Shown: positions 685 through 22,507, counted from the stretch's first letter. The stretch is DNA of 23,634 bases from Bdellovibrionota bacterium FG-2 (GCA_051382305.1 JBBCAV010000384.1:1-23634), one strand, 5' to 3'. Translations and numbers: made by a program. Notes: generated from the letters alone by a model not told the origin.

Positions 685-3600
685 TCAGAGAGTTCGAAGA
701 GCATCGAGGGCGCTCTCGACTTGAAAACAAAGTTCCCTGGGAGAGAGGGTCAGAACTTTGACAACGAATTTCGACTCTGGCAGGAGGCGGTATTTTTCGA
801 CATCAGTCCCCACTAGGGCGATTGCGCGCGCCGGGTCAAGAGTGCTTATGGGTCCAGATTGAAGAATAAACTTATCAGAACTTGCGGTGAGGCTCATGAT
901 GCCATTTGTCTTGAGTAGAATTTTGATTCTGATGAGCCAAAGAAGATTCTCGGCCTCTGCTGGGAGGGGGCCAAAACGGTCAAGAAGTTCGTCTTTGTAG
1001 GTGTCGACCGTTGAGAAACTCGCGGCAGAGGAAAAGCGTCGATAAAGAGACAGTCGCTGGTGAGTATCAGGGATGTAGTCTTCCGAGAGAAAAGAGGGGA
1101 ACGGGGTTTTGATTTCTGGCTCTTTTGAGCTTTCTTGCAAGGAAAGGGGTCTTCCTTGAATTTCTCGGACCGCCTCTTCAAGGAGCTCAAGGTAAAGATC
1201 AAGCCCCACGGATGCAATATGTCCAGATTGCTGCGGACCCAGAAGATTCCCACCGCCGCGAATCTCTAAATCATGTGACGCGATGTGAAAGCCGCTTCCG
1301 AGCTCAGCAAAGCGTTGAATAACTTCAAGGCGCCGTTTCGCCTCTTCGGAAACTGGGCTTTCCTGGGGAATAAAGAGATAGGCGTGTGCACGTTGCTGAC
1401 CTCGGCCGATTCGGCCACGGATTTGATAAAGCTGGGCAAGCCCCAGAGCGTCCGCGCGATTGACGATGAGGGTGTTGGCGGAAGGAACATCGAGTCCGGA
1501 CTCGATGATACTTGTGCACACAAGGACGTGGCTCTTTTTTTGATAAAAATCGAGCATGGTCTTTTCGAGCTCACCTTCAGGCATTTGACCATGAGCAACG
1601 GAAAAGCGCGCTTCAGGAATAAGAGCCTGAAGTTTTTTAGTAATTGAATAGATGGAACTCACCTTATTATGAAGAAAGAAAACCTGCCCATCGCGCGCGA
1701 GCTCCGAACGAATCACCTTCTGAATAAGGGGCTCATCATAGCGCGAAACGTGCGTCCGAATCGCGAGACGGTCTAAGGGGGGTGTGTTAATAAGGCTGAT
1801 ATCTCGGAGACCGGAGACGGCCATATTCAAGGTGCGAGGAATGGGGGTTGCCGTTAAAGTAAGAACATGGGTGTTCGTTTTTAGGGCTTTGAGCTTTTCT
1901 TTGTGTTCGACCCCAAAGCGATGCTCTTCATCGATGATCAATAACCCAAGGTCCTTGAATTGAATGTCTTTAGACAGAAGTCGGTGCGTTCCAATAACGA
2001 TATCCATTTTTCCTTGCGCAAGTTCTGCCAGGATTTCTTTTTGTTCCCGCGAAGTTTTAAAGCGAGACAAGGAATCCGCCTTTATCGCGAAAGCCGAAAG
2101 CCGCGCCCGAAAAGACTGTTCATGCTGAAGAGCTAGGAGAGTTGTAGGGACGAGAACGGCAACTTGCTTTCCTTCAGTCACGACACGAAAGGCGGCCCGA
2201 ATAGCCACTTCAGTTTTCCCATAGCCGACATCACCACAAATGAGGCGATCCATCACTTTTCCTGAGTGTAAATCCTCGAGAACGTCTTCAATGGCTGTGA
2301 GCTGGTCTGGAGTTTCCTCAAAAGGAAAAGTCGATTCAAACTCTCGAAATAGAGAGTCCCTATGAGGAAATACAACTCCCGCGCGCAATTTTCTCTCTGC
2401 ATAAAGCTGGACAAGGTTAACGGCGAGCCTCTGAACTGCCTCCTTGACAGAAGCTTTTGTTTTCTGAAACGAAGCATTCCCGAGCCGATCGAGTGTGATA
2501 GTAGTGCCGGACCCTGCATATTTTTGAATGACATTGAGCCGGTAAACGGGAATGTATAGACGATCATTCCCTGCGTATTCTAAAAGGACAAAATCAGAGG
2601 GAGCCCCAGTGAGGGTTAGCCGGGCAATTCCTTGGTATTTCGCGACCCCATGTTCTTGATGGACGACTGTATCCCCTATGGCAAGATCCGCCAAAGCCTG
2701 CAGTCCCAACCATTCTTTTGAAGCGCTACTGCCCCCTTTCTTGGATCGAGAAAGATTTGTGGTGGTCTTATTTTTGGAATGGCGGGTTCCCAAGATCTCT
2801 TCTTCGGAAAGGACAATCAGGCCCTCGGTGGGCCAGCGAAAGCCCGCTGAAATATTCCCCTTCATTATAGTGATGGCGTTCTTTGAAATAAAGGGCTCAA
2901 GTGTGCAGCGGACTCTTCGCTCCTCTAAAAGAAAACGAAAGCGATCCATTTTTGAGTCGGTAAGACAAAATACAAGAACAGTCTGCCCCTCCTTTGTCCA
3001 TTCTTTTAGGAGGGGTTCGTAGTAGGAAAGGGTGGTCGCAGCGTCAGCGCTTGGGCCTATATTCGTCTCGATATTAACTGAAAACTCCCGTGTATTTTGA
3101 TCACATTGCCCTTCGAGCAGGAAGGGGTCAAAGTAGATTCGAGCTTGCGAGAAGAAGGTGTCGGTTTGTTCTGGGGAAAAGAGAAAAAGTTTCTCAGGAG
3201 GGGGAATAATGAGGCCGCGTTCCGTGCAGATTTTTGATTCCCCTTGTAGTGACTTAATAAAGGAACCCCATTCTTGCAGGCAACTTTGTTCGTCATTCCA
3301 GGCAAAATAGGTGTTTTCTGGGAGGTAGCCAAGAAGTGAGGTTGGGGTTGTGTAACAAAAAGGAACCCAACTGTCGCTGTGCTCAGGATAAATTTCTTCT
3401 CTCACAAGGTTTAAGAGTGGATCTCGAATCGCGCGCGAAACGTCGCAGTCGTCACAATAGGTTTTGATTTTCTCGCGAACGACAAGTTGGCTTTCCGGGC
3501 TTAAAATAAATTCTCTCGCCGGGCAAAGCAGGACTTCTGATAACGTTCTTGGGTAGGTGCGTTGGGTCTCTGGGTTAAAAGGTCTAATTCGTTCAATTTC

Positions 3601-4200
3601 GTCACCAAAAAACTCAATACGTATAGGTTCATCAAGATGAGGGGAGAAAATATCCAGAAGGCTGCCACGAACGGCGTAGGTTCCCCGATCTTCAACAGTG
3701 TCAGAAGCTAAATAGCCCGCTTTCACTAGATGTAGGATTACGTCGTCTCGCGAAGGCCCACTGTTTCCAGTTCTTAGCAGAAGCGTCAGCCGCTTGAATA
3801 ACTCGAAAGGAAGTGTGGCTTGGGTCGCTGCGGCAAGAGTTGTAATGATAATTTTCACGGGAGATGAAGCAAGAAGAGATGAGAGCCCCGCTAAGCGAGA
3901 ATAGCGAGACTTTAGTGAGGGCGCAACCGGGCTGTAGGGGGAAATTTCCCAGGATGGAAATAAGACGATATCTGAGGGTGTAAGCCCAAAAAGAGGCGCA
4001 AGCGCAAGAAAGTCGGAATAGGTTTCCCATGTCGCCTCTTCGTTTTTACACATTAAGACAAAGGGATTGGCGTATTCTAAGGAGCGGCAAAACGTTAGAG
4101 TGAGATAGGCCCTCACTAGAGCTGTGGTGCCAGAAACCCTCACCCGTGAGCCGGGCTTGTCGAGCGCGGTGAGAATTTCCTTAATCCCAAAGGATTGCAT
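685..4200 (-). CDS. mfd: Transcription-repair coupling factor Mfd (1171 aa)
   Basis: UvrB-like N-terminal region (YAVRGSLLDIF...RIEFFGDEIERIR), RID/CarD-like domain (GDTVVHQEHGVAKYQG), SF2 helicase Walker A GDVGYGKT, DEEH box, TATPIPRT, QIRGRIGR, TRG motif HDLEIRGGGNLLG, C-terminal TRCF domain (RLSLYRR...DRFGPLP). Confidence 0.98.
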   Translation of the reverse strand: MQSFGIKEILTALDKPGSRVRVSGTTALVRAYLTLTFCRSLEYANPFVLMCKNEEATWETYSDFLALAPLFGLTPSDIVLFPSWEISPYSPVAPSLKSRYSRLAGLSSLLASSPVKIIITTLAAATQATLPFELFKRLTLLLRTGNSGPSRDDVILHLVKAGYLASDTVEDRGTYAVRGSLLDIFSPHLDEPIRIEFFGDEIERIRPFNPETQRTYPRTLSEVLLCPAREFILSPESQLVVREKIKTYCDDCDVSRAIRDPLLNLVREEIYPEHSDSWVPFCYTTPTSLLGYLPENTYFAWNDEQSCLQEWGSFIKSLQGESKICTERGLIIPPPEKLFLFSPEQTDTFFSQARIYFDPFLLEGQCDQNTREFSVNIETNIGPSADAATTLSYYEPLLKEWTKEGQTVLVFCLTDSKMDRFRFLLEERRVRCTLEPFISKNAITIMKGNISAGFRWPTEGLIVLSEEEILGTRHSKNKTTTNLSRSKKGGSSASKEWLGLQALADLAIGDTVVHQEHGVAKYQGIARLTLTGAPSDFVLLEYAGNDRLYIPVYRLNVIQKYAGSGTTITLDRLGNASFQKTKASVKEAVQRLAVNLVQLYAERKLRAGVVFPHRDSLFREFESTFPFEETPDQLTAIEDVLEDLHSGKVMDRLICGDVGYGKTEVAIRAAFRVVTEGKQVAVLVPTTLLALQHEQSFRARLSAFAIKADSLSRFKTSREQKEILAELAQGKMDIVIGTHRLLSKDIQFKDLGLLIIDEEHRFGVEHKEKLKALKTNTHVLTLTATPIPRTLNMAVSGLRDISLINTPPLDRLAIRTHVSRYDEPLIQKVIRSELARDGQVFFLHNKVSSIYSITKKLQALIPEARFSVAHGQMPEGELEKTMLDFYQKKSHVLVCTSIIESGLDVPSANTLIVNRADALGLAQLYQIRGRIGRGQQRAHAYLFIPQESPVSEEAKRRLEVIQRFAELGSGFHIASHDLEIRGGGNLLGPQQSGHIASVGLDLYLELLEEAVREIQGRPLSLQESSKEPEIKTPFPSFLSEDYIPDTHQRLSLYRRFSSAASFSTVDTYKDELLDRFGPLPAEAENLLWLIRIKILLKTNGIMSLTASSDKFILQSGPISTLDPARAIALVGTDVEKYRLLPESKFVVKVLTLSPRELCFQVESALDALRTL

Positions 4201-4206
4201 AAATAG

Positions 4207-4235
4207 AATCTACTTTCCTTGACACATTTTTTCAA
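4207..4235 (-). promoter_or_regulatory. Putative sigma70 promoter for mfd (probably leaderless transcript)
   Basis: Minus strand reads TTGAAA (4235-4230), a 17-nt spacer, TAGATT (4212-4207), 6 nt, then the mfd ATG at 4200. No well-spaced Shine-Dalgarno sequence. Confidence 0.6.
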
Positions 4236-4247
4236 CTTCAGTAATCT
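4219..4247 (+). promoter_or_regulatory. Putative sigma70 promoter for the double nuo operon
   Basis: Perfect -35 TTGACA (4219-4224), 17-nt spacer, -10 TAATCT (4242-4247; T1, A2 and T6 conserved). GAGG at 4254-4257 precedes the ATG at 4269. Confidence 0.75.
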
Positions 4248-4268
4248 TTTCGCGAGGTTCTCATTAAG

Positions 4269-4691
4269 ATGCCAAGCGGTTGGGAAATTTACTACGTTAT
4301 TCTATTGTCGGCGACCCTCGCTTTGGGGTTTCCAATTATATTGGCGATATTTTTATTCATTATCATACCTAAAAAAAGAAAATTTCGCAGGGCTCAAAAT
4401 GCGAAAAAAAATAACCAGGCGCGGCCCGTTGTTCGCAGTCTTCTTGGGCGCAGGATTAATGTCCGATTCTATCTTTCGGCAAATGCGGCATTAATATTTG
4501 TTACGCTCTCTTTTGGTTTTGTTCCCTGCGTGGGGGCAATTCAAAAAGAGAGCGAAAGAATGGATGTGGTGGCGGCGATTGTTTCCTTATGCTGCTTGGG
4601 CGTTTTCTCCGGTGTTGGGTTGTTATATGCTATTCGAAAAGGCGATTTAAGCTGGTTGAGATCTTATCATCGGCATGAGGATGAGTTATAA
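4269..4691 (+). CDS. nuoA: NuoA-like subunit, divergent copy 1 (lacks the ECG loop motif and the D/E of FDVE)
   Basis: Three hydrophobic segments; RINVRFYL matches R.SVRFYL and YAIRKGDLSW matches YxxRKxALxW; first gene before nuoB. FDVE is replaced by FVTL. Confidence 0.8.
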   Translation: MPSGWEIYYVILLSATLALGFPIILAIFLFIIIPKKRKFRRAQNAKKNNQARPVVRSLLGRRINVRFYLSANAALIFVTLSFGFVPCVGAIQKESERMDVVAAIVSLCCLGVFSGVGLLYAIRKGDLSWLRSYHRHEDEL

Positions 4692-5164
4692 TGGAGTCCT
4701 CAATCTACGATTCCACCTTGGGGAGGGTCTTGCGTTGGGCTCGCTACAGCTCCTTTTGGTATATTTCTGTCGGAGGTGGGTGCTGTGCTGATGAGCCGCT
4801 TCACACGGTGGGTTGTCGTTATGATCTAGAGCGGTTCGGGTGTGTTCCACAATCGGAACCCAGGCAGGTTGATCTTCTCATTGTCAACGGTGTGATCACA
4901 TATAAGGCGTTGCCCTATTTGCGTTCCTTTTATGATCAGATGCTAGCCCCCAAGTATGTGATGTCGATTGGCTCCTGCGCGAATTGTGGGGGGCTTTTTA
5001 GTCCCGATAATAGTTATTCCGTGGTCCCTGGGGTAAATAAGATTATTCCCGTGGATGTTTATGTTCCCGGTTGCCCGCCCCGTCCCGAAGCCATCATGAA
5101 TGGACTTCTAGCACTTCAGGAAAAAATACGTGGATATAATAGAGCTGAAAAAAAATTTATCTGA
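4691..5164 (+). CDS. nuoB: NuoB-like Fe-S (N2) subunit, copy 1
   Basis: GCCADE, RYDLERFG, PRQVDLLIV, YDQMLAPKYVMSIGSCA, VDVYVPGCPPRPEA. All four N2 cysteines are present. TAATG overlap with the upstream gene. Confidence 0.95.
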   Translation: MESSIYDSTLGRVLRWARYSSFWYISVGGGCCADEPLHTVGCRYDLERFGCVPQSEPRQVDLLIVNGVITYKALPYLRSFYDQMLAPKYVMSIGSCANCGGLFSPDNSYSVVPGVNKIIPVDVYVPGCPPRPEAIMNGLLALQEKIRGYNRAEKKFI

Positions 5165-5648
5165 CGCACTTTCAGGCAGAATCTTGCAGTTCGGACAGCT
5201 CGGCCGGGACGGGGTTCTCTCTGTCTGGATTGAAGCGAAGCATATTGATGAGGTGGCCCTTTTGCTTCGGAATGAATTGTTGCTGGACTTTTCGAGTTTA
5301 GAAAATTTCTTTGTGGCGCAGATAGATTCGGCTCTCATTCTAAGTTATTTTCTGTGTTCTCCAAAAAACCATGCTGAAGTCATTCTCCGGGCGTCGGTTG
5401 TCCCTCAGAATCCAGATGCAAAAGTCAGGGTGCCGTCGGTGCGTGAAATTTGGCCTATGATAGAACATCAAGAACGGGAGAGTTCAGAGCTGTTTGGGCT
5501 TTCCTTCTTCTTGGGGCTCACGCCCAACGAGACCCCGGAAGGAGAACAAAAATTTCTTCCTTCAGGGTGGGAGGGTTTTCCTCTTCGCAAGGAATATACT
5601 TTTCCGGAAACCTTCCTGAGTGTTAGGCACCAACCGGAGGTAGAATGA
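5130..5648 (+). CDS. nuoC: NuoC-like subunit, divergent copy 1
   Basis: VPSVREIWP, ERESSELFG (canonical ERExxDxFG), WEGFPLRKEY (canonical GHPLRKD). GTG start overlaps the nuoB 3' end by 35 nt, so the exact start is uncertain. Confidence 0.88.
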   Translation: MDIIELKKNLSDALSGRILQFGQLGRDGVLSVWIEAKHIDEVALLLRNELLLDFSSLENFFVAQIDSALILSYFLCSPKNHAEVILRASVVPQNPDAKVRVPSVREIWPMIEHQERESSELFGLSFFLGLTPNETPEGEQKFLPSGWEGFPLRKEYTFPETFLSVRHQPEVE

Positions 5649-6778
5649 ATTTCCCTCTTTTCGGCGAGCGGCTTAAAACAGACATAACGAGCTGGGAAGT
5701 GGGCCCCTACCATTTAGCGCTCCCCGCCCCGATGAAACTATCATTGAAACTCGATGGCGAAGTGATTGTTTCTGGGGAAGTTGAGACGGGATTTTTGCAT
5801 CGAGGGCTTGAGAAGTGTTTTGAGCGCCATTCTTGGCGCTCTGCACTTCCTTATGCGGATCGACTGGACCCCGAGGCGGCGGTTTTTGGAGAACTCGTGT
5901 ATTGCCTGGCGGTTGAAGAGATTGCAAACATACTTATTCCCCCAAGAGCCCAGGCAATTCGAGTGATTCTTTCAGAACTAACGCGAATTTCGGGTCACCT
6001 GGGAAGTGCAATTCGGGTTGCGCGAGCGGTGGGTGCAGAAAAAATTCAACACTACATTTTGAGGGATCGAGAGAAAATTACAGACCTTTTTGAGCTTTTG
6101 ACAGGAGCCAGATTCTCTCTAAATTTTCTTCGGATCGGTGGCGTGAGGGCAAACGTTACAGATGGCTTTATTGAGCGGGTGCTTGATATTTGTGATCTCG
6201 TTCGCATTCGACTTAAAGAGTACAATGACTTGTTTACCTTTAATCACGCTTTTCTAAAGCGCACGATGAATGTGGGGGTTCTTTCGCCAAAGATGGTAAG
6301 AAAATATGGAATTACCGGACCCAGCGCGCGTGCCTCAGGCCTTATGATGGACGCGCGAAAGGATCGGCCCTATTGTGGATATGAGATTCTTGATTTTGAG
6401 GTTCCACTTGGACAAGGAGAGGGTGGGACGTTAGGTGATGCACATGAGCGATTTTTAATAAGACTTCGGGAAGTTTCTCAAAGCATTGAGATTCTTAGGC
6501 AGGTGACCGAGGGGTTGCCAAGTGGAGAATATATCTCTCAAACGGACGAGCTTATGGTCCCAGAGGGCGAGGCGTATGTCCGTGTTGAAAGTTCGCGTGG
6601 GCTCTTAGGATGTCATTTAATATCTCTCGGGGGGGCGTCGCCCCATCGGGTTCAATTTAGGACGCCAAGTGGTTTTCATCTCCTCTCAATCCCAGAGTTA
6701 GTTGTGGGTCTTAAATTAGAAGATTTGTCAGTTGTCTTGGCGAGTCTTGATCTCTCTATAGCGGAGGCAGATCGATGA
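5645..6778 (+). CDS. nuoD: NuoD-like (49-kDa family) subunit, copy 1, quinone-site residues absent
   Basis: GPYH, LDGEVI, GFLHRGLEK, DRLD, SELTRISGHL, TGAR, IGGV, GPSARASG, RTPS and C-terminal LDLSIAEADR. No hydrogenase CxxC motifs. GGAGG RBS and ATGA overlap. Confidence 0.93.
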   Translation: MNFPLFGERLKTDITSWEVGPYHLALPAPMKLSLKLDGEVIVSGEVETGFLHRGLEKCFERHSWRSALPYADRLDPEAAVFGELVYCLAVEEIANILIPPRAQAIRVILSELTRISGHLGSAIRVARAVGAEKIQHYILRDREKITDLFELLTGARFSLNFLRIGGVRANVTDGFIERVLDICDLVRIRLKEYNDLFTFNHAFLKRTMNVGVLSPKMVRKYGITGPSARASGLMMDARKDRPYCGYEILDFEVPLGQGEGGTLGDAHERFLIRLREVSQSIEILRQVTEGLPSGEYISQTDELMVPEGEAYVRVESSRGLLGCHLISLGGASPHRVQFRTPSGFHLLSIPELVVGLKLEDLSVVLASLDLSIAEADR

Positions 6779-7851
6779 ATGGTCATGGGCCTCAGTGGAG
6801 CGCACTTTTGCAGCACCTATTTGGATTACGGGGTTCCTACCCACAGTGGTTCCTCGCTTTAATAGGTCTCGCAGCCGTATACTTGGGTCTAGTGGTTCCT
6901 GGTGCGTGGTTTGTTTCCTATGTTGATCGAAAACTTGGAGCAGACTTTCAAGCTCGCGTGGGGCCTAATCGTGCGGGACCGTCCGGATTTTTTCAACCCT
7001 TAGCGGACTTCTTGAAGCTGTTGCAAAAAGATGCCCAAGAAAAAATAACGGGTGGAGACCTACTATGGATGGTTATTTTTACGTCTGCACTTTATTCGAG
7101 CGTCGCTGTGATTCCATTGGGCGCGTCTTTTATCTTTGTTGATACGGATTTGAGCGCGTTCATTCCATTCTGGTCTGCGCTCATCTTAGCTCTCGGAACG
7201 ATGTTACTAGGTTTTAGCCGACCGACAGTACCGGGCTGGTTTGGTGCGATAAAGGTTGCGGGACAGGCTTTTTCTGGGGCGTTTCCGGCTTTAGTTTCGT
7301 TGGTGACGGTTGGAATTAGAGCGGGCGGATTTCGCTGGAGTCGCCTGGTTGGTTCGCAGGGGGTTTTCCCAGCAGAATGGGCCGCTTTCTCAAATCCGTT
7401 TCAGTTTTTAGCCCTCCTCGTGTTCATGATTAGCGGTCTTGTGATGATGAGTTTGCCGCCGATGGATGGCGTGATCTCCTCTTACAATATGAATGGCGGA
7501 GTGATTTCGCATCTCTTTGGCAGGCGTTGGGCGATTTTTAGGTTGGGGCGGTTTTATGCGTTTTTTCTTTGGTGTCTAGTGGGGTCTGCCTTGTTCTTGG
7601 GAGGCTGGCAGCTTCCGGCGCGTGTCACTGAAGTTTTGTTAGATTCTGTTGTCTTAAGGCAAGGAGTTGAGTCGATTTTACTTTTAACAAAGACCTTTAT
7701 TTTGATGGTCGTTGTTATTTGGGTTTCTCGAGTTAATTCAAGAACCCGCGTAGATCAGGTTACCGATTTTGCTTGGAAGGTTCTGTGTCCGTTCGCATTG
7801 GTGGCCCTGATGGGGTCTGCCCTTTGGGCGGGGTGGGAGCTCATCCTATGA
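6775..7851 (+). CDS. nuoH: NuoH-like membrane subunit, divergent copy 1
   Basis: DRKLGADFQARVGPNRAGPSGFFQPLADFLKLLQKD, LFLGGW, RTRVDQVTDFAWKVLCP. GGAGG RBS and ATGA overlap with the nuoD-like gene; no nuoEFG in between. Confidence 0.92.
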   Translation: MNGHGPQWSALLQHLFGLRGSYPQWFLALIGLAAVYLGLVVPGAWFVSYVDRKLGADFQARVGPNRAGPSGFFQPLADFLKLLQKDAQEKITGGDLLWMVIFTSALYSSVAVIPLGASFIFVDTDLSAFIPFWSALILALGTMLLGFSRPTVPGWFGAIKVAGQAFSGAFPALVSLVTVGIRAGGFRWSRLVGSQGVFPAEWAAFSNPFQFLALLVFMISGLVMMSLPPMDGVISSYNMNGGVISHLFGRRWAIFRLGRFYAFFLWCLVGSALFLGGWQLPARVTEVLLDSVVLRQGVESILLLTKTFILMVVVIWVSRVNSRTRVDQVTDFAWKVLCPFALVALMGSALWAGWELIL

Positions 7852-8381
7852 GTGGTTCTATTTTTATCTCGTGCATTACATATTTGCGAGACGTATTTTC
7901 AGGGGCTCGCTCGATTCTTGAGTCTTGTGTTGCGGCGATTCCTTATCTCTTCAGTGCCGGAGAAAATAGAAAAGAAGTAACCGAGCAATATCCTGATCCG
8001 ATTTCTTCGCGGACTGCGGACGATTTGCCTTCGCGATCTCGGGGGATTCTGTTTAATGATATCGATCGATGTACGGGCTGTCGAGAGTGTGAAAAAATTT
8101 GCCCAAATAGGAGCATATTCATCGAAACTCAGTCGGGATCTGACCCCGCTAAGATTTGGGTTTCTGTCTTTGATATTGATTTGTCAAAATGTGTCTTCTG
8201 TGGCCTTTGCGTTGATGTGTGTGTTCCTGAATCGATCGTGCATACCAAACAATATGAGGGGGCGGTCTATATCCTTGATGATTTGAAAGCAAGCTTTGGT
8301 CGCGGTGGGGTCACACCTGAAATGCAGGCCCGCTGGGCCGCGAACCGCCGGGCGAATGAGTCAGAAGGGGGGGGATTTTGA
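7848..8381 (+). CDS. nuoI: NuoI-like 2x[4Fe-4S] subunit, copy 1
   Basis: VTEQYP, CTGCRECEKICP and CVFCGLCVDVC (8 Cys). ATG at 7848 overlaps the nuoH stop (ATGA) and follows GGGAG, so it is preferred over the track's TTG start at 7773. Confidence 0.92.
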   Translation: MSGSIFISCITYLRDVFSGARSILESCVAAIPYLFSAGENRKEVTEQYPDPISSRTADDLPSRSRGILFNDIDRCTGCRECEKICPNRSIFIETQSGSDPAKIWVSVFDIDLSKCVFCGLCVDVCVPESIVHTKQYEGAVYILDDLKASFGRGGVTPEMQARWAANRRANESEGGGF

Positions 8382-8923
8382 TTTTAGTTGGATTTTCATT
8401 AGTAGCTGTTTTTTGCGCCATTTTTGCGGCCTTTTCGAGCGATATAAAGCGCGCGATTTTAGCCCTTTGGGTTTGTGGCCTTGGAATGGGGGCGGTCTTT
8501 CTCGGCCTTGGAATGGAGTTTCTTGCTGTAATTCAATGGATCGTGAGCACGTTGGTCGCGGTTGCCTTTGTCTTTTTTTTGGTCATGTTTGGTGAATTTG
8601 AACAAAGGATGGAAGGGGTTCCAAGAGAGCCTAAAAGAGTTCAAAATAAAATCGAGAGGGCCCTTCCCTTAGGCCTTGGTGCGGTTTTTTGTGTAATTTT
8701 TGTTATGGCCTTGGAACAGATAAAGGGGTCTGCTGAAAAGATAGATGAGATTCTTAAGGGTGGAGTGGTGAGTGGAGTCGATCTTTCTGTTTTTGGAAAA
8801 GTTTTTATGAGGGAGCACTTCTTGTCTCTTCAAGTCTTAGCTTTGATGTTACTCTTAGTGATTGTGGGTGGGGGTGTGATCGCACGCCCAGAGGCACCCA
8901 GGGACAATAAGGAGGGAATATGA
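8378..8923 (+). CDS. nuoJ: NuoJ-like subunit, divergent copy 1
   Basis: Five hydrophobic segments; EFLAVIQWIV (canonical xFLAxxQIxVY), FGKVFMREHFLSLQVLALMLL (canonical G..LF..YxLPFExxSxxLL); position between nuoI and nuoK. TTG start in a TTGA overlap after a G-rich RBS. Confidence 0.85.
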   Translation: MILVGFSLVAVFCAIFAAFSSDIKRAILALWVCGLGMGAVFLGLGMEFLAVIQWIVSTLVAVAFVFFLVMFGEFEQRMEGVPREPKRVQNKIERALPLGLGAVFCVIFVMALEQIKGSAEKIDEILKGGVVSGVDLSVFGKVFMREHFLSLQVLALMLLLVIVGGGVIARPEAPRDNKEGI

Positions 8924-9210
8924 TCCTCGCATTGCCCGGCATTATTGGTGGGATTGGTTTAGCCTGCATCATCTTTAGAAAAACATTATTGGGGGTTCTT
9001 ATCGGGGTTCAGCTCCTCATTCTTGGTGCCGTAGCAGCGGTAGTGATGGCTGGAATTGTATCGGGTCGACAGGTATCGGGCCATGTGTCGGGCGTTCTAA
9101 TATTTTTAAGTGGAGTTGCACTAGTTGCTCTGGGCTTTGCTTTAGCAATTCGGATGTTTTATTTACGGAGAAGAATTTCAATGTCTGAACTCCGCACTCT
9201 GAGACAATAA
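8920..9210 (+). CDS. nuoK: NuoK-like subunit, divergent copy 1 (both membrane Glu absent)
   Basis: 96 aa with three TM segments; RKTLL..IGVQL matches RRNxx..SIEL, ALGFAL matches AIGLAL, C-terminal ELRTLRQ. TAAGGAGG RBS at 8908-8915 and ATGA overlap. Confidence 0.82.
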   Translation: MILALPGIIGGIGLACIIFRKTLLGVLIGVQLLILGAVAAVVMAGIVSGRQVSGHVSGVLIFLSGVALVALGFALAIRMFYLRRRISMSELRTLRQ

Positions 9211-9213
9211 TTA

Positions 9214-11133
9214 ATGGAAGACGTAAATAACCTAAAAATTCTGAGTCTTGGGATCTTCGGTGCCATTCTTTTTGGCTTAAGTCTCTTTTTCCTGAAGAAG
9301 GAGTTTCAGAAATACACGAGATGGATTTTCTTTTTTGTTTTGTTGTTTTTTTTTGGCGTGGTGCTTTTTGTGGCCACCGCGCAGGATCCCATTTTTGCAC
9401 CCGCCGATTGGAGCCGGGGCTGGGTGTTGCCTCGTGATGCCTTAGGTGCGATTACAGCAGGCTTTCTGGTTGATGCTCAAGCTTTCCTGGGCTTGTTTTT
9501 CGCGACAGCCCTAACAGCACTCTTGGGAGGTTTCTTAAGTATTCGCGCCGATACGCCTTCTTGGGCGCGAGTTATTCCTTCTTTTTTGGTGAGCCTAGGC
9601 GGTTTTTCTATCAGTGTTACCGCGCTGACGCCCTGGATGGTCTTTATCGGGTTCTTTATTTCAGTTTTTGGTGGGGCGGTTGTTCTGGGTGCTAAATGGA
9701 AAACTGACGCAGACTCCATGTTGGGCGTTCGGTTTGCATGGGAGAGAAGTAGTGGTTTGTTTTGTTCGATATTTGGGGCTTGCGTTTTGGCGGCCACCCA
9801 ACCCCCCCTTCTCTTAAATCACCAGGTTGCGGGGGTCGAGCCGTTGGGCGGAGCCCTGCTTCTATTGGGGCTTTTCTCTCAGTTTCAATCTTTTCCGTTT
9901 TCGGCGCGACGATTAGCGCAACGTCAGGTTCCGTTGGTGGCCAGCGTCCTCGTTGCACAGGTTTTACCCGGTTGGGCCGTGCTCTTTTTCTTGGCGCGAT
10001 TCGAACCAAGCCTCACGGGGTCCACTATTGTTTTGGTTTACGGGTGGATCTCCCTCTTTTCTGCGGTCCTTTCGACCGGCGAAGGACTGTTTCAGTCTGA
10101 GAGTCCCAGAGGGATTACGATTTGGGTTTCGGCGGGCTTTGCTTTTGCTTCCGCTTTGTTTGCCTTTTCTGGAGCTCAGGCGGGTTTTGTTTGGGGACTG
10201 GGGGTCGGTCTAGGGGGCATTTCTCTTTCTCTTTTTGCCGAAAATGGGCGAGGCCAAAAAACGGAAAAGAAAACTGTAAACAAGCAAAACAACGGGCTTC
10301 TTGTTCTGATTTCGAGCTTCCTCTCCTGCGCGGCGGGAACGGGTTTTCTTGGTTTTGTCTCGAGCATCGGAGGGCATCAGTGGTTTACACAGGGGCTTGA
10401 AAGCGCGCCGATGGCCGCAAGTTTTAGTGTGGCTCTATTTTGTCTGGCTTTCTTGGGATGGAAGAACTTTTTTCAACTCAACCGCATACAGTCTGGCCCT
10501 ACCGTACCCTTGGTTACGGCTGTTTTATCTCTTTTTGTGGTAAGTCTCTCGTTAAGTGTTTTCTGGGACGGCACCCTCTTTGGGGGGGTTGTCTTAGAGG
10601 GGGCGGATTCTATCTTTCCATCGATTTTGAGGAAAATATTTATTCAGCTGAGGCCCATTGCGCAGAAAAGTGATATGGCGATCGTCGCTTCGGGGGGGTA
10701 TTTTGGGATCGCTCTTTTCGCTTTTTTTACAGCTTATTGGGGATTCGGACGAAAGCGCGACGTTTTGTCGGACGTAGCAAAGAAGTTTGTGCGGATGTTT
10801 GGAGTTGTGTCAGATGGATATGGGATAGATAGACTATTTGCAGGCGCGCTACGATTTCTTATATTTATAAGTGAGCGCCTTTACCGTAGAATTGATCAAG
10901 TGTTTTGGGGCCGGTTGTTGCCGGCGGGTTTTTCAAGAATTATTGAAAAGGGTTCACAGGTAATTACAGTGATTGACCTACGGTTCTTTGTAAGGTTGTC
11001 GGCCGCGCTGCGAGGAGCAGTTGAGCTTCCCGCTAAGGCCTTGCAGTTAATCCAGAATGGAAATGTGCAGTGGTATCTTTTTTTTGCAGTCGCTTCTGGA
11101 ATCGCAGTTTTACTAAATTTCTTAAAAGGTTGA
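9214..11133 (+). CDS. nuoL: NuoL-like antiporter-family subunit, extremely divergent copy 1
   Basis: 639-aa polytopic protein between the K- and M-like genes. Recognisable remnants: GFLVD (beta-hairpin/TM3), LGAKW...ER (IGxW...NR), AAGTGFLGFVS (GxPxxxGFxSK), and the NuoL-specific C-terminal lateral helix with GYGIDRL...IDQ...LQLIQNGNVQWY. Confidence 0.78.
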   Translation: MEDVNNLKILSLGIFGAILFGLSLFFLKKEFQKYTRWIFFFVLLFFFGVVLFVATAQDPIFAPADWSRGWVLPRDALGAITAGFLVDAQAFLGLFFATALTALLGGFLSIRADTPSWARVIPSFLVSLGGFSISVTALTPWMVFIGFFISVFGGAVVLGAKWKTDADSMLGVRFAWERSSGLFCSIFGACVLAATQPPLLLNHQVAGVEPLGGALLLLGLFSQFQSFPFSARRLAQRQVPLVASVLVAQVLPGWAVLFFLARFEPSLTGSTIVLVYGWISLFSAVLSTGEGLFQSESPRGITIWVSAGFAFASALFAFSGAQAGFVWGLGVGLGGISLSLFAENGRGQKTEKKTVNKQNNGLLVLISSFLSCAAGTGFLGFVSSIGGHQWFTQGLESAPMAASFSVALFCLAFLGWKNFFQLNRIQSGPTVPLVTAVLSLFVVSLSLSVFWDGTLFGGVVLEGADSIFPSILRKIFIQLRPIAQKSDMAIVASGGYFGIALFAFFTAYWGFGRKRDVLSDVAKKFVRMFGVVSDGYGIDRLFAGALRFLIFISERLYRRIDQVFWGRLLPAGFSRIIEKGSQVITVIDLRFFVRLSAALRGAVELPAKALQLIQNGNVQWYLFFAVASGIAVLLNFLKG

Positions 11134-11142
11134 GAGGGTAAA

Positions 11143-12657
11143 TTGAATAACCATTTTTTAAGTTTGATGATCATCCTCCCGTTGGCGGGAGCGGTTTTGC
11201 AAATGGGGATTTCGAAAAAAATGGCGCTCGCAGGTTTCGCGCGTTGGGGGGCATTGATTTCGAGCATCGCGGCGAGTCTGGTGGGTGTTGTTCTCGTTTT
11301 CTCCATGGACCGACAGACGCCAGACTTACAGTTTACAGAGAGTCTTTCTTGGGTAGGCTCTTATGCAATTCATTATGAGTTAGGTTTGGATGGTCTCAAT
11401 GCGCTTTTGGTTCTCTTGGTTTCAATTATTTTCCCTGTATTGCTTGCTGCTGAATGGAATCAAAAAACAGGGTTGCGCGGAATGCACGGACTGTTTCTGA
11501 TTCTCCAATGCGCCTTTTTTGGTGTGGCGGTTGCTCAAGATCTGTTCCTGCTATTCTTTTTTTGGGGCTTAAGTGCGATGCCCTTTTATTTCTTGGTGGG
11601 AATTTGGGGGGGGGAAGGCCGAGAAAGTGCCGCCTTTCGTTCGGTTGTCGCGTCCGCCATTGGAAATTGCTTTTTGTTTGCCGCGCTTATTCTCGTCTAC
11701 TACTCAGCGGATCCGCATAGTTTTTCAATAAGAGACCTTTCGGGTGGAAGGTTTTCTGGAAAAAGTTTTTTCTTTTTTGGACGGGAAATTTTGGTGTCGA
11801 GTGCGGCATTTGTTTTGATGAGTTTAGGGCTCGCATGTCGCGCGCCTATTTGGCCATTGCATGGGTGGTTTTCAAATGTCGCCAAAGAAGCGCCCCCTAC
11901 CGTTTTTATTTCTCTCGCGGCCGTAACGGTTCCTGTGGCTATCTATATTTTTGTTCGGCTCTCGTATAGTCTCTTTCCGGAGATGCTCTTGGGAACAGGA
12001 AATGTCATTGTTTTGGTTGGTGCCGCTAATCTCGTGATGGGTGGCATTTTTGCGGTCGCCCAAAAAGGCTTAAGGCTTTTACTTGCCTTCCTTTGTCTTA
12101 GCGGCGTGGGTCTTGCCCTTATTGGGGTTGGTTCATTGCAGTCGGCTGGGGTTGTTGGCGCAGTGTTTCACTTGTTGGTTTTTGGACTGGGCCTTTGTGG
12201 TTTCGGCCTGTTTGCGGGTGTTATCGCCTCCCGTTCCGGGCACTCAATGTTTTTGAAGGAGCAGCGGCAGCGCAGTTTTGGTGGCCTTGCCACGGTGACT
12301 CCCATGATCGCAGTAGTTGCGGGTGTTTTTATTGCTTCGCTTCTGGGAATTCCGGGCTTCGGCGGATTTGTTGGAAACGCGCTTCTGATCATTGGAAGCT
12401 ACTCCGTTCATCCTGCGATGGTCATTGTAGCAGGTCTGGCACTTTTGCTTTCTACCTATTTTCTTTTTACGATGTATCGATGTGTTTTTTTTGGAGAACC
12501 CAACACGGCGCTTGAGAATTTCTCTGATCTAACGCTTAGGGAAAAGTTCTATTTTCTCCCTCTGGTTGCGGGCTTGATTTTCGCTGGAATCTACCCCAAA
12601 CCACTTTTAGAGCTTGTGAGACCTACGGTTCTCACTTTACTGTCGACGATAAAATAG
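11143..12657 (+). CDS. nuoM: NuoM-like antiporter-family subunit, divergent copy 1
   Basis: YELGLDGLN, DLFLLFFFW..MPFYFLVGIWG, PIWPLHGW, FGGLA...P, SLLGIPGFGGFVG, DLTLRE, GIYPKPLL. TTG start after GAGGG. Confidence 0.92.
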   Translation: MNNHFLSLMIILPLAGAVLQMGISKKMALAGFARWGALISSIAASLVGVVLVFSMDRQTPDLQFTESLSWVGSYAIHYELGLDGLNALLVLLVSIIFPVLLAAEWNQKTGLRGMHGLFLILQCAFFGVAVAQDLFLLFFFWGLSAMPFYFLVGIWGGEGRESAAFRSVVASAIGNCFLFAALILVYYSADPHSFSIRDLSGGRFSGKSFFFFGREILVSSAAFVLMSLGLACRAPIWPLHGWFSNVAKEAPPTVFISLAAVTVPVAIYIFVRLSYSLFPEMLLGTGNVIVLVGAANLVMGGIFAVAQKGLRLLLAFLCLSGVGLALIGVGSLQSAGVVGAVFHLLVFGLGLCGFGLFAGVIASRSGHSMFLKEQRQRSFGGLATVTPMIAVVAGVFIASLLGIPGFGGFVGNALLIIGSYSVHPAMVIVAGLALLLSTYFLFTMYRCVFFGEPNTALENFSDLTLREKFYFLPLVAGLIFAGIYPKPLLELVRPTVLTLLSTIK

Positions 12658-12669
12658 AAGGAGGCGATA

Positions 12670-14151
12670 GTGAGAGAGCTTATTGCATTTCTTCCAGAGA
12701 TCATTTTGAGCATCACCTTGCTCTCTATTATTTTTGCTGAAATTACCTATCAGGGTTCGCGCGTTCGGTTTACGACACTTATTGCCTTGTTGGGTTTGTC
12801 TGCAGCCTTTCTTCAGACGCTCGTGGCGCTTAATTACGGACCGACCTTTATTTTTGGAAAAGTTCTCGTGATTGATGGGTTGTCTCTATTCTTTAATCTG
12901 TTCTTTACAGCCCTAGGGGCACTTGCAGTTATTTCGGCCGTTCAGGTCAAAGAAATCTCAAGATCCACGCGGACGGAGTATTGCGCTCTTGTTGTGGCGG
13001 CCTGCCTGGTGATGTGTCTGGCTGCCTCGGCGGCCGATCTTCTCCTTTTATTCCTGTCGCTCCTGTGTGTTAATATTGTGTTTTCGGTCCTTGCCGCATT
13101 TGGAAAAAGATCCATTCTTTCTATCGAGGCCGGGATTAAGTATTTACTATTTTCAGTGGTCTCGGTTGGTTTTTTACTCTTCGGAATCGCTCTAATTTTT
13201 GCCGCGACACATGAGCTAAATATTTACGAAATTCATCGCGCTATTCTTACTCATTCGGTCGACCCCAGAGTCATGTTTGTGACCTTTCTATTTTTCTTTT
13301 TTGCTATTGGTTTTCAAGTGGCGGCTTTTCCATTCTATCTATGGGCACCGGATGTAGTTGAGGGTGCGCCCACCCCCGTCTCGTCATTTTTAGTTTTGGG
13401 TTCGCGCGGGGTGGGTTTTGCGGTGTTATTAAGGCTCGTCTTGGTCCTGCTTTCCGAGCCGACCCAAGCTGGGGCCGCAGGGGGAGAACTTCGTCATTTG
13501 GTTGCTGATTTTGATTGGCCAAAAGTATTGGCAAATCTCGCGGGATTTTCAATGTTGTTTGGAGCTCTTCTTGCGCTACGCCAAAAAGGTGCAAAGCGAA
13601 TGGTGGGGTGTTTGGCAGTTTCTCAAACTGGATTTTTTCTAATGGCGCCTCTTGTTTTGGATCAGCAAGGGGTCGCTGCGTTAATGTACAATCTCGTGAT
13701 TGAGGTTTTTGCGCTTACGGGAATCTTTTTCGTTCTCTCGGTGTTTTATGACGAAATGCGTTCAGACCGATTAGTGGATTTCAAGGGGATCTTGGGTAAG
13801 GCCGTTTTGGAATGTATCTGTTTAATTCTGTTTCTTCTTTGTTTGGTTGGCATCCCTCCCCTTCCCGGGTTTATTGGAAAGTTTGCTTTGGTGGGATCTG
13901 CTGTGCAGCACGGGTGGATTGCTCTTGCGGCTATTGCGATCTTTTCGATGGGGGTTTCCATGGCGGCAGTGGCCCGATTCATTTATGCGATGATCTCAGA
14001 TTTTCGTAAACCTGTGGAAGCTGGGTTGAGGTTTGGTTTTAGGGGAAGAATGTTTCTGTTTTCGTTGGTGGTCCCAATGCTCCTTTGTGGCGGGTTTGCT
14101 GAAGTCATTTTTCAATGGGCTGGCAAGCATTTAGGTTCAATTTTATGGTAG
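12670..14151 (+). CDS. nuoN: NuoN-like antiporter-family subunit, divergent copy 1
   Basis: LPEIIL, IDGLS, TEY, SIEAGIKY, AAFPFYLWAPDVVEGAPTPV, KRMVG, GIPPLPGFIGKF. GTG start after AAGGAGG (12658-12664). Confidence 0.93.
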   Translation: MRELIAFLPEIILSITLLSIIFAEITYQGSRVRFTTLIALLGLSAAFLQTLVALNYGPTFIFGKVLVIDGLSLFFNLFFTALGALAVISAVQVKEISRSTRTEYCALVVAACLVMCLAASAADLLLLFLSLLCVNIVFSVLAAFGKRSILSIEAGIKYLLFSVVSVGFLLFGIALIFAATHELNIYEIHRAILTHSVDPRVMFVTFLFFFFAIGFQVAAFPFYLWAPDVVEGAPTPVSSFLVLGSRGVGFAVLLRLVLVLLSEPTQAGAAGGELRHLVADFDWPKVLANLAGFSMLFGALLALRQKGAKRMVGCLAVSQTGFFLMAPLVLDQQGVAALMYNLVIEVFALTGIFFVLSVFYDEMRSDRLVDFKGILGKAVLECICLILFLLCLVGIPPLPGFIGKFALVGSAVQHGWIALAAIAIFSMGVSMAAVARFIYAMISDFRKPVEAGLRFGFRGRMFLFSLVVPMLLCGGFAEVIFQWAGKHLGSILW

Positions 14152-14185
14152 CCGGCTGAGGTCTGTTGGGGCTATAAACGTCTAT

Positions 14186-14545
14186 ATGGCATACATTCCC
14201 GTTTTGATCTTACTGGGCCTTGGTCTGGCAGTGGGTGGTGCAGTTCTAGTTCTTACTCATCTTATTGGAACTGGTATTCCGAATAGGAAGAAGAACCAAC
14301 CCTTCGAGTGTGGTGTTCCTGGTATGGGAGATGCGCGACATCGGGTCTCTGTTCGCTTTTATCTCGTTGCGATCCTATTTCTCCTTTTTGACGTCGAGGC
14401 GATTTTCTTTTTCCCTTGGGCCTTGGTTTTTAAAAAGTATTTGAGCATCAATTCTTTTATTCTTCTGGAAATGGCATTTTTCGTGGCGATTTTTCTTGTT
14501 GGATATTTCTATGTGCTGCGGAAGCGCGCGCTCGATTGGGATTAA
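14186..14545 (+). CDS. nuoA: NADH-quinone oxidoreductase subunit A, canonical copy 2
   Basis: KNQPFECG, RVSVRFYLVAILFLLFDVEAIFFFPWA, YVLRKRALDWD. Confidence 0.97.
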   Translation: MAYIPVLILLGLGLAVGGAVLVLTHLIGTGIPNRKKNQPFECGVPGMGDARHRVSVRFYLVAILFLLFDVEAIFFFPWALVFKKYLSINSFILLEMAFFVAIFLVGYFYVLRKRALDWD

Positions 14546-14554
14546 GGAGCCTTT

Positions 14555-15070
14555 ATGTCTAAAGACGGATCAGCATCATTCTTTACTACCCGCTTTGAAG
14601 CGGTTTTAGATTGGGGACGCAAGAATTCTCTGTGGCCCCTTCCGTATGGAACCAGTTGTTGTGGAATTGAAATGATGTCCACGCTCTGTTCCGATTACGA
14701 TATGTCCCGCTTTGGAGCGGAGGTTGTGCGGTTTTCTCCTCGCCAGAGTGACTTATTGATTGTTGCTGGCATCATTACAACCAAAATGGCGCCTGTCTTG
14801 AAGACGGTCTATGATCAAATGAGTGATCCAAAATATGTGATGTGCGCGGGGGCGTGCGCGTCTTCAGGTGGTATTTTTAACGTTTATAGCGTCCTACAGG
14901 GGATTGATACAATGATTCCGGTAGATGTATATTTACCTGGCTGTCCACCTGCTCCCGAAGGGTTTCTGCACGGCCTTCTTCAATTGCAGGAAAAGATTGC
15001 GCGAGGGGAAACGCATTCACATCGAAAATTAGCAGAATTTAAGCGCGGCAATGCTCTGTCTTCATTATAA
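14555..15070 (+). CDS. nuoB: NADH-quinone oxidoreductase subunit B, canonical copy 2
   Basis: [49 protein letters not shown]. Confidence 0.97.
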
Positions 15071-15091
15071 GGGCACATAGAGGATCACACC

Positions 15092-15658
15092 ATGGACGTA
15101 AGAACACCGATTCCAACAAACGGCGGCGAGGCGATCAAGAAATTCGGCGAGGCTTGGCGCAAGCAAATCGCGCTTCTTCAGGTAAAATTTTCTGCGGATT
15201 TGAAGAAAGTTCTGTTCCCAGGCGAGGCCGCAACAGATTTTCCCATCATTTATGTTTCCAAGGACAAGCTAATTGAGATTTTGAAGTTTTTAAAAAAAGA
15301 GGCGGGTTTTGAGTACGACTTTCTTGCGGACCTTACTGCGACCGACGAGGAGTTAGTGCCCAGGTTTGAGCTCGTTTACAATCTTTTTTCCACAACGCAC
15401 AAGCACCGTATTCGTGTAAAAGTAGCCGTTCACGAGGGGGAGGATGTTCCAACTGCTATCTCGGTTTGGCCGGGCGCAAACTGGGCCGAACGAGAAGTGT
15501 ATGATATGTTCGGAATTAAATTTCAGGGTCACCCCGATTTACGAAGGCTTCTCATGGATTATCGCTACGTTGGGCATCCGCTTAGGAAAGATTTCCCATT
15601 AAGGGGCTATCAACTATTTACCGAACCCCAAGAGATTGACCCGAAACTGTTGGATTAG
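15092..15658 (+). CDS. nuoC: NADH-quinone oxidoreductase subunit C, canonical copy 2
   Basis: LADLTATD, RFELVYNL, ANWAEREVYDMFGIKFQGHPDLRRLL, GHPLRKDFPL. Confidence 0.97.
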   Translation: MDVRTPIPTNGGEAIKKFGEAWRKQIALLQVKFSADLKKVLFPGEAATDFPIIYVSKDKLIEILKFLKKEAGFEYDFLADLTATDEELVPRFELVYNLFSTTHKHRIRVKVAVHEGEDVPTAISVWPGANWAEREVYDMFGIKFQGHPDLRRLLMDYRYVGHPLRKDFPLRGYQLFTEPQEIDPKLLD

Positions 15659-15686
15659 TGTTTTCTAAATAAAGGCACAGAATAAA

Positions 15687-16937: not shown

Positions 16938-16961
16938 GCGTGAATTCGGCGGAGGATTGAA

Positions 16962-20130: not shown

Positions 20131-20140
20131 GAGGCATATA

Positions 20141-21226: not shown

Positions 21227-21229
21227 GCT

Positions 21230-22502: not shown

Positions 22503-22507
22503 CCCAA

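Follow-up and report, generated by a model that had tools for sequence, protein, structure and literature searches.

Two sets of genes for respiratory complex I lie one after the other in a stretch of 23,634 nucleotides from Bdellovibrionota bacterium FG-2 (GCA_051382305.1 JBBCAV010000384.1:1-23634), referred to here as the window. The upstream set of eleven genes (copy 1, window positions 4269-14151) is the subject of this report, and the canonical nuo set downstream of it is called copy 2. Copy 1 is under purifying selection, its iron-sulfur (Fe-S) ligands are kept, and the residues that serve quinone and proton chemistry are replaced. It can be said with high confidence that it is a selected, charge-stripped paralogue of complex I which is unable to work in the canonical way. 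Judged by the roles published for the missing residues, as given in the available parts of PMC5552823 and PMC10212512, it would neither reduce quinone nor pump protons canonically. The genes follow the order nuoA-B-C-D-H-I-J-K-L-M-N, all on the plus strand, and read as eleven intact frames with no internal stop over about 9.9 kb, as the original prediction, made from the sequence of the window, had claimed.

The residue comparison was made subunit by subunit, with the window and 20-24 further genomes aligned against 8-9 canonical sequences. Most of these genomes belong to the same family, and the order's other families contribute four (G028, G029, G034, and G035). The canonical set consists of eight versions of copy 2, one from the window and seven from relatives, together with a third eleven-gene cluster of this same genome (G000, contig C157). 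Copy 2 of genome G005 was excluded because several of its genes are split, and eight more divergent loci were tallied apart. Channel and antiporter-axis positions are numbered by the canonical copy of the window.

All 12 cysteine ligands of the Fe-S clusters had been predicted to be kept, and 12 of 12 are present in the window, four in NuoB (cluster N2) and eight in NuoI (clusters N6a and N6b). Across the family, those of NuoB are retained in 23-24 of 24 genomes and those of NuoI in 25 of 25. Replacement of the quinone triad of NuoD had also been claimed, and direct alignment with Nqo4 of Thermus thermophilus confirms it: His38 is replaced by Pro27, Tyr87 by Pro76, and Asp139 by Ala128. The available part of PMC5552823 assigns quinone roles to Tyr87 and to His38/Asp139 of Nqo4 and also deals with the glutamates of Nqo8. 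Family-wide, the His position is Pro in 22 of 25 sequences, the Tyr position is Pro in 21 of 25, and the Asp position is Ala, Ser, or Thr in 24 of 25. NuoD keeps 35 of its 47 canonical-invariant charged residues, as compared with none of the three triad residues (Fisher p=0.014). The subunits of the N-module, NuoE, NuoF, and NuoG, are absent from the eleven copy-1 genes, and one set of them is found in the downstream canonical operon.

The membrane arm has lost its charges on a larger scale. Roles of the glutamate of transmembrane helix (TM) 5, LysTM7, Lys/HisTM8, Lys/GluTM12, NuoK E36/E72 (Escherichia coli numbering), and the NuoJ TM3 tyrosine are described in the available part of PMC10212512. 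Along the E-channel, the D69/E71 pair of the canonical NuoA motif 'FDVE' has become V/L; canonical E38 and E74 of NuoK are Gln31 and Leu68 in the window (family-wide, Q in 20 of 24 at E38, and Q in 16 and L in 4 of 24 at E74); and the TM3 Tyr of NuoJ (canonical Y62) is Ser, with Ser, Ala, or Thr in 22 of 24. NuoH has replaced E161, E221, R224, E231, E233, E243, and E256, that is, six glutamates and one arginine, and is without the glutamates of the 'AETNR...PEGESE...AEY' region; both the TM5-6 loop and the E-channel are affected. D231 of copy-1 NuoH is kept, and position 238 is Asn in the window and Asp or Glu in relatives. The original prediction of E-channel loss in NuoH, NuoA, NuoJ, and NuoK is therefore right for NuoA, NuoK, NuoJ, and seven positions of NuoH, and it goes too far for D231 and the acidic or Asn position 238. 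As a separate observation, residues ~33-55 of copy-1 NuoA form a Lys/Arg-rich insert in the TM1-2 loop (140 against 119 amino acids), where canonical NuoA/ND3 bears a conserved Glu and Cys.

In the antiporter-like subunits the Glu/Lys/His axis is nearly gone. NuoL has kept no axis residue: E156, K246, H271, H351, H355, and K359 are lost, as is the TM12 'SKDE' motif, which by helix means the TM5 Glu, the TM7 Lys (Gln in 16 of 24), the TM8 His, the TM11 'HxxxHxxxK', and the TM12 'KDE'. NuoM has lost E147 (TM5 Glu to Gly), K267 (TM8 Lys to Pro, 23 of 24), and E409 (TM12 Glu to Asn). At TM7 it has Arg instead of Lys in all 24 genomes, and 20 of the 24 retain a nearby His. NuoN has lost E147 (TM5 Glu to Leu; Gln or Leu in the family), K232 (TM7 Lys to Gln, 16 of 24), and K262 (TM8 Lys to Arg), and keeps the TM12 Lys (K404; 20 of 24 genomes) and K157 (24 of 24). 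The claim that the axis was removed from NuoL, NuoM, and NuoN is thus correct for nearly all of its residues and does not extend to the two NuoN lysines or to TM7 of NuoM, where Lys has become Arg and the His remains. Counted over all canonical-invariant charged residues, the membrane subunits retain 1 of 22 in NuoL, 1 of 5 in NuoK, 2 of 9 in NuoA, 9 of 29 in NuoM, and 8 of 26 in NuoN.

These losses have not been accompanied by decay. The proportion of nonsynonymous differences (pN) in copy 1 is 0.04-0.31 over genome pairs, as against about 0.6-0.86 for synonymous differences (pS), and pN is far below pS in every gene. Between this genome and its congener G001, copy-1 pN is 0.04-0.22 and pS is 0.67-0.79, which is saturated. 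The least saturated pair, G004 and G289, gives a ratio of nonsynonymous to synonymous rates (omega) of ~0.09-0.19 for copy 1, a rough figure owing to saturation, and 0.04-0.13 for copy 2; the NuoD comparison in this pair covers only 72 codons, up to a contig end. The nonsynonymous rate (dN) of copy 1 is 2-6 times that of copy 2, and the identity of NuoL across genera is 23-34% in copy 1 and 70-78% in copy 2. The replacement residues are themselves conserved, as seen above for the two NuoD prolines, the NuoK Gln at E38, and the TM7 Gln of NuoL and of NuoN. Together with the occurrence of copy 1 in relatives and its kept synteny, these data bear out the earlier view that copy 1 is not a product of neutral decay.

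Constraint is unevenly distributed among the subunits. When a column is called conserved if at least 85% of the family share the same residue, conserved columns are densest in NuoB (61/157), NuoD (111/377), NuoI (62/202), and NuoM (121/504), the last being the best-conserved membrane subunit. They are sparsest in NuoL (25/639, almost all Gly or Trp), NuoK (9/96), NuoJ, NuoA, and NuoC (21/172). Beside the replaced Tyr and Asp, NuoD has acquired conserved residues specific to copy 1 (D75, E77, E83, C87, H136, R140, D141, and D147), and NuoI has a copy-1-specific C-terminal extension in which R177, W188, and R192 are conserved. These new residues are the main argument that the Q-module may still do something specific.

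The distribution of copy 1 was followed with NuoD in 40 relatives, 24 of them from the same family. A copy-1-type NuoD with 47-83% identity is found in 23 of the 24 family genomes; the sole exception is a genome that is 56% complete and has no NuoD of any kind. Such a NuoD or a remnant of it occurs in 37 of the 40 relatives. The family is probably an uncultured one of the Bdellovibrionota, which a sequence atlas gives as the commonest phylum in the nearest cluster. Its genomes are all multi-contig assemblies, and wherever the contigs permit it, the copy-1-type NuoD is found on one contig with the canonical NuoD, about 10 kb away. In the 32 relatives' loci compared, the genes run A-B-C-D-H-I-J-K-L-M-N and then into canonical nuoA, and the putative mfd gene which precedes copy 1 was located by tblastn in the flank of 30 of these loci, the other two ending at a contig edge. 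The arrangement of mfd, copy 1, and canonical nuo, with copy 1 intact, is recovered in 23 of 24 genomes of the family and in the majority of the order's other families.

Of 301 genomes sampled across the phylum, 38 belong to the family; a profile of copy-1 NuoL matches 36 of these, and the two that it misses carry a copy-1 NuoD beside the canonical NuoD. Searched against 1.84 billion representative proteins, this profile finds 191 clusters (50% identity) at E<=1e-30 and 1295 at E<=0.001. The copy-1 NuoL family is narrow but real, and its profile barely recognizes canonical NuoL. A scan of a contig database with NuoD returned only archaeal (Nitrosopumilales-type) sequences and one Bryobacteraceae NuoD, at 30-35% identity, which serve as outgroups only.

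Farther from the window the cluster erodes. Copy-1 nuoC was not found in four loci (L044, L053, L054, and L056). In the families of the order that are farthest removed, a shrunken cluster still stands 5' of canonical nuo: NuoC is missing, the protein in the L position has 299-414 amino acids, and the membrane proteins are unrecognizable by BLAST. Two loci of another family, f10 (L054 in G033 and L056 in G039, ~2.7-9.7 kb), have no NuoC and a NuoD of 330-335 amino acids, with a run of multi-TM genes directly 5' of canonical nuoA whose L/M/N-position proteins (299-454 amino acids) are silent in BLAST. Upstream clusters in four other-family loci (L049, L050, L052, and L055, from G036, G038, G025, and G030) keep the NuoD Tyr, the NuoM TM8 Lys, and more of the axis residues of NuoM and NuoN, and L049 and L050 also keep the NuoM TM12 Glu. 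A NuoD tree made by a quick method (47 rows) joins copy 1 and four divergent forms in one clade, with a support of 96 by the Shimodaira-Hasegawa-like approximate likelihood ratio test, apart from copy 2 (100) and copy 3. The four other-family loci fall outside that clade (support 84) and may represent either orthologues that have decayed less or another paralogue; the branches of the tree are long, and its root is not firm.

Three further loci show interrupted genes. A single in-frame TAG is present in copy-1 NuoD of G035 (G035:C22:45709-46812), and a single in-frame TGA in copy-1 NuoL of G310 (G310:C3:586-2505); local pseudogenization or a sequencing error is possible in each. In the near-complete five-contig genome G005 (L062, G005:C3:1484000-1499500) it is copy 2 that is affected: nuoB, nuoD, nuoF, and nuoN are each read as two open reading frames (ORFs), nuoC has no separate ORF, and copy 1 is intact. 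Frameshifts or assembly indel errors may explain this pattern.

By descent, copy 1 belongs to the complex I core, since homologues of all 11 core subunits stand in one cluster, with weak evidence for NuoA and evidence from profile alignment and fold for NuoL. Pfam and NCBIfam place copy-1 NuoB, C, D, H, I, J, K, M, and N in the matching Nuo families. NuoA scores 19.7 bits in Pfam against a cut-off of 23.3, and nearly all NCBIfam scores are far under the equivalog cut-offs. Among PDB chains, copy-1 NuoD scores best with Nqo4 of T. thermophilus (247 bits), followed by NdhH (238), Mbh alpha (142), and HycE (111). Identity to copy 2 is 14-36% (14% for NuoL, 32% for NuoD). In subunit length and approximate TM count copy 1 agrees with copy 2, and the overall fraction of charged residues is similar, so it is the membrane core, rather than the loops, that has lost its charges.

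NuoL required other evidence, as it has no match in Pfam or NCBIfam. The copy-1 NuoL family aligns with canonical NuoL in hhalign with a probability of 96% (E 4.4e-9, 524 columns, 14% identity), end to end and including the C-terminal Q-x-G-x-x-Q-x-Y motif. An AlphaFold2 model built with 25 orthologues has a mean predicted local distance difference test score (pLDDT) of 82.2 and a predicted template modeling score (pTM) of 0.81, and contains a 77-residue helix (538-614) and a last helix (618-638) like the lateral helix and anchor of NuoL. In Foldseek, the best 50 matches listed for this model are all NuoL, NdhF, ND5, or MrpA, with a TM-score of 0.59-0.72 at 10-15% identity. As far as the model can tell, copy-1 NuoL is a full-length NuoL homologue whose fold is kept. 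A complex prediction of copy-1 NuoM with residues 160-639 of copy-1 NuoL gave a median of 0.29 against a mark of 0.32 and carries no weight either way.

Taken together, copy 1 may be described as an old, fast-evolving paralogue of the 11-subunit complex I core which selection has kept. Its proteins would assemble into an L-shaped, Fe-S-bearing complex, probably co-expressed with the canonical operon to judge from the spacing of the genes, and incapable of canonical quinone reduction and proton pumping. Such a complex would be non-pumping, largely non-catalytic, and pseudoenzyme-like, and would stand in a structural or regulatory partnership with the active complex I, which might take the form of joint assembly with copy 2 or of competition for the single adjacent NuoEFG. 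This account as a whole is rated slightly better than even. The specific role of a non-catalytic partner of active complex I is proposed tentatively, at less than even odds; the sign of partnership seen is the co-location of copy 1 with its active paralogue in one probable operon. A bolder form is also conceivable, in which a shadow complex I pairs with the active complex I encoded on the same transcript, or competes with it for NuoEFG, as an obligate structural or allosteric partner or as a brake; it is a speculation that we consider unlikely.

Several observations weigh against this account. The loss in the membrane arm is general and covers most canonical-invariant residues beyond the mechanistic ones. 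Hence the earlier claim, in which mechanistic residues were systematically removed, is accurate in that they are replaced and inaccurate in that the loss is not confined to them (NuoL keeps 1 of 22 charged residues); in the membrane arm, systematic removal cannot be told apart from a broad relaxation of constraint from which only the fold is exempt. Moreover, the TM12 Lys and K157 of NuoN, the TM7 Arg and the His of NuoM, and D231 of NuoH are kept, so that some residual ion chemistry is possible. In each of the three pairs compared (G000/G001, G009/G223, and G004/G289), synonymous sites have reached or almost reached saturation, and omega is accordingly rough. Finally, the 12 Fe-S ligands and the new NuoD pocket residues (those listed above other than C87) would fit a working site that was remodelled rather than abandoned. 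The new polar and acidic residues look more like those of an active redox enzyme with a new acceptor. A purely inert scaffold is disfavored by the same two features, which keep alive the idea of a wire to a non-quinone acceptor.

That idea leads to the best surviving alternative, in which copy 1 is an active redox enzyme without energy transduction. Electrons from a ferredoxin-like donor or from shared NuoEFG would pass through N6a, N6b, and N2 to a remodelled pocket of NuoD, NuoB, and NuoH, with a different acceptor or a different mode of quinone binding, and the membrane arm would serve as an anchor only. The Q-module subunits NuoB, NuoD, and NuoI are the best conserved, the Arg, Lys, and Asp of the NuoH TM1-2 loop at the cavity entrance are kept, and the new NuoD residues flank the replaced Tyr and Asp. 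The complete set of Fe-S cysteines also speaks for it, but a protein may retain an Fe-S cluster solely because its folding or stability depends on it, as is the case for cluster N7 of NuoG. No candidate acceptor or donor gene is found within the cluster, and the most distant families have a shrunken cluster from which NuoC has been lost. It has been reported, in the available part of PMC3144371, that 11-subunit relatives free of the N-module use other donors; on the other hand, the proton donors to quinone, Tyr87 and His38/Asp139, are Pro, Pro, and Ala here, a change that should break the canonical chemistry according to the available part of PMC5552823. On balance this alternative is unlikely, although the conservation of the Fe-S cysteines and of the residues gained around the pocket secures it a substantial minority share of the probability.

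The partner reading also has to be distinguished from one in which the copy-1 genes form no complex of their own and encode alternative subunits that are swapped into the canonical complex as conditional hybrid isoforms. The two copies probably share an operon, and the available part of PMC4453560 mentions a genome with one nuoEFG and two sets of the other 11 genes, for which two isozymes are considered possible. However, the eleven subunits stay together in every lineage and, having moved away from copy 2 as a group, are now 14-36% identical to it, so that their interfaces have probably co-diverged, and a single dead subunit would poison the active complex. Swapping is therefore improbable.

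Very improbable, too, is translocation of ions by copy 1 through non-canonical residues (e.g., NuoN K157/K404, NuoM R233/H240, NuoJ E47, and NuoK R78) or with another coupling ion. A few titratable residues of the membrane subunits are indeed kept or newly conserved, and NuoM is well conserved, with 121 of its 504 columns. The chain, however, is broken in every subunit: NuoL, NuoM, and NuoN have no GluTM5 and no TM8 Lys or His. Arginine cannot shuttle protons. NuoL, proposed in the available part of PMC10212512 to be the sole proton exit, keeps 1 of 22 canonical-invariant charged residues and has only one conserved charge of its own.

A decaying duplicate (pseudogene cluster) or an assembly artefact is effectively ruled out, because the two- to sixfold faster evolution and the in-frame TAG and TGA of G035 and G310, which might suggest it, stand against ~9.9 kb without a stop here and no stops in most of the relatives' clusters compared, pN far below pS, conserved replacement residues, presence in 23 of 24 family genomes, and the same synteny in independent assemblies across an order.

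The features of the window are collected in Table 1.

Table 1. Genes and other features of the window (positions counted from its first nucleotide; aa, amino acids)
Feature	Position	Strand	Remarks
Putative mfd (transcription-repair coupling factor), divergent	685..4200	-	1171-aa ORF; name read from sequence
Candidate sigma-70-like promoter, TTGACA-17 nt-TAATCT	4220..4248	+	read by eye in the 68-nt mfd/nuoA gap
Copy-1 nuoA	4269..4691	+	140 aa, 3 TM; PF00507 19.7 bits (below cut-off); NCBIfam NuoA E 3.4e-4
Copy-1 nuoB	4691..5164	+	157 aa; PF01058 91 bits; NCBIfam NuoB subfamily 192 bits, above cut-off
Copy-1 nuoC	5130..5648	+	172 aa, GTG start; PF00329 60 bits
Copy-1 nuoD	5645..6778	+	377 aa; PF00346 237 bits
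Copy-1 nuoH	6775..7851	+	358 aa, ~8 TM; PF00146 161 bits
Copy-1 nuoI	7848..8381	+	Fer4 families; NCBIfam NuoI subfamily
Copy-1 nuoJ	8378..8923	+	181 aa; PF00499 46 bits
Copy-1 nuoK	8920..9210	+	96 aa; PF00420 36 bits
Copy-1 nuoL	9214..11133	+	639 aa; assigned by profile-profile alignment and fold, without a Pfam or NCBIfam match
Copy-1 nuoM	11143..12657	+	504 aa; PF00361 136 bits
Copy-1 nuoN	12670..14151	+	493 aa; PF00361 148 bits; NCBIfam NuoN subfamily 233 bits, below cut-off
Spacer between copy 1 and the canonical operon	14152..14185	+	34 nt; similar short junction in relatives
Canonical nuoA-B-C-D-E-F-G-H-I-J-K-L (copy 2)	14186..23632	+	runs off the contig end; mechanistic residues all present

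The gene junctions of copy 1 are overlaps of 1-4 nt or gaps of at most 13 nt, with the exception of the 35-nt overlap of nuoC with nuoB; the GTG start of nuoC with this same overlap is seen in relatives as well. Motifs resembling Shine-Dalgarno sequences precede most of the starts. The frame of nuoI is open from TTG 7773, which had been taken as its start, but ATG 7848, in a 4-nt overlap with the nuoH stop, is the most likely start instead. A consensus promoter scan did not include the candidate promoter 5' of nuoA among its matches, and a terminator-like hairpin sought in the spacer between the two copies was not found there. Judged solely by this spacing, copies 1 and 2 probably form one transcription unit of 25 genes. 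The GC content is 0.46-0.49 across the whole window and offers no pointer to a recent horizontal transfer of copy 1, although uniform composition is weak evidence. For copy 2, the best PDB matches of NuoH are NdhA, Nqo8, and NuoH chains. Its NuoG (18718-20130, plus strand) has only 470 amino acids, as compared with 466-486 in relatives; the N-terminal Fe-S domains are kept and the molybdopterin-like C-terminal domain is reduced to a remnant.

Other complex I-like genes are present elsewhere in this genome. The third nuo cluster, on contig C157 (L060:1238-11532, minus strand), has 11 genes (A, B, C, D, and H-N) and no E, F, or G. It bears essentially all canonical mechanistic residues, except that the NuoM TM7 Lys position is Leu, and its NuoD is 36% identical to that of copy 1. 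A fourth complex I-like cluster, on contig C190 (L061:7238-14548, minus strand), encodes a 249-aa fusion of a ferredoxin-like 4Fe-4S protein with NuoB, a 506-aa NuoC-NuoD fusion, and antiporter-like proteins of 483 and 668 aa; it looks like a member of the group-4 hydrogenase/Ehr side of the superfamily. A second NuoF-like gene (G000:C350:808-1926, minus strand), 40% identical to copy-2 NuoF and contained in a 645-aa frame, lies away from the nuo clusters and may be part of a soluble NAD-linked dehydrogenase or hydrogenase.

The quinone-site and central-axis residues of complex I are treated as near-invariant across the whole superfamily. Here one lineage has neutralized essentially all of them, with eleven subunits affected together, and ~9.9 kb of coding sequence has remained intact while synonymous sites were saturated many times over. 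This retention suggests that the complex I scaffold has a selectable use beyond redox-driven proton pumping, and the role of copy 1 is probably non-respiratory. Copy 1 amounts to a natural all-sites mutant, in which the E-to-Q and K-to-Q/R changes resemble those introduced one at a time by mutagenesis. It could serve to separate the features of complex I needed for folding and assembly from those needed for coupling, and could reveal what is left for the Fe-S chain to do once its link to quinone is severed. Should copy 1 indeed partner or regulate the active enzyme, this would add a new mode to the respiratory control of bacteria. If the shadow complex exists, a whole respiratory complex would have become a pseudoenzyme, with a prozyme-type pairing extended over eleven co-evolving subunits and maintained across an order.

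Compared with canonical complex I (NDH-1, nuoA-N), copy 1 has the same 11 core subunits in the same order, the same folds, and the cysteines of N2, N6a, and N6b; it differs in having no NuoEFG of its own, no quinone site, no E-channel carboxylates, and almost none of the axis residues. Cyanobacterial and chloroplast NDH-1 and archaeal Fpo share with it the 11-gene make-up without NuoEFG, and NdhH is the second-best match of copy-1 NuoD. However, NDH-1 and Fpo are active pumps in which the residues of the quinone site and those for pumping are retained, whereas copy 1 is without these residues and its cluster contains no NDH-1-specific accessory genes. The Ehr complexes, reportedly described by Marreiros and co-workers in 2013, are said to be members of the complex I/group-4 hydrogenase superfamily which lost the catalytic ligands of the large subunit and still persist, as copy 1 does after losing the ligands of its own catalytic site. 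They are also said to have originated on the hydrogenase side and to have fewer subunits; copy-1 NuoD, in contrast, is nearer to Nqo4 and NdhH than to Mbh and HycE by the scores given above, and it is accompanied by a full set of NuoA, J, K, L, M, and N.

Full-text literature searches, in which supplementary lists of nuo clusters were not covered, found no published description of a charge-stripped second nuo cluster, so the original statement that no such system has been described holds for the literature searched, supplements aside. The nuo clusters of Bdellovibrio and Bdellovibrionota are treated in PMC4758237 (Degli Esposti 2015) and PMC13147790 (2026, Peredibacter), the available parts of which mention no residue loss. 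The closest inventory is that of Spero et al. (2015, PMC4453560), where footnote b of Table 1 records a genome in which nuoEFG is single and the other 11 genes are present twice, making two isozymes possible. This is the same 11 + 14 content with a single N-module as found in copies 1 and 2, and the part of the main text examined does not mention a loss of mechanistic residues.

A further likeness is offered by prozymes, such as that of trypanosomatid AdoMetDC described in the available part of PMC5201418, in which a duplicate without catalytic residues is kept by selection and co-expressed with the active copy. Prozymes are single polypeptides, whereas copy 1 comprises eleven subunits of a membrane complex, whose partnership with the active enzyme is putative.

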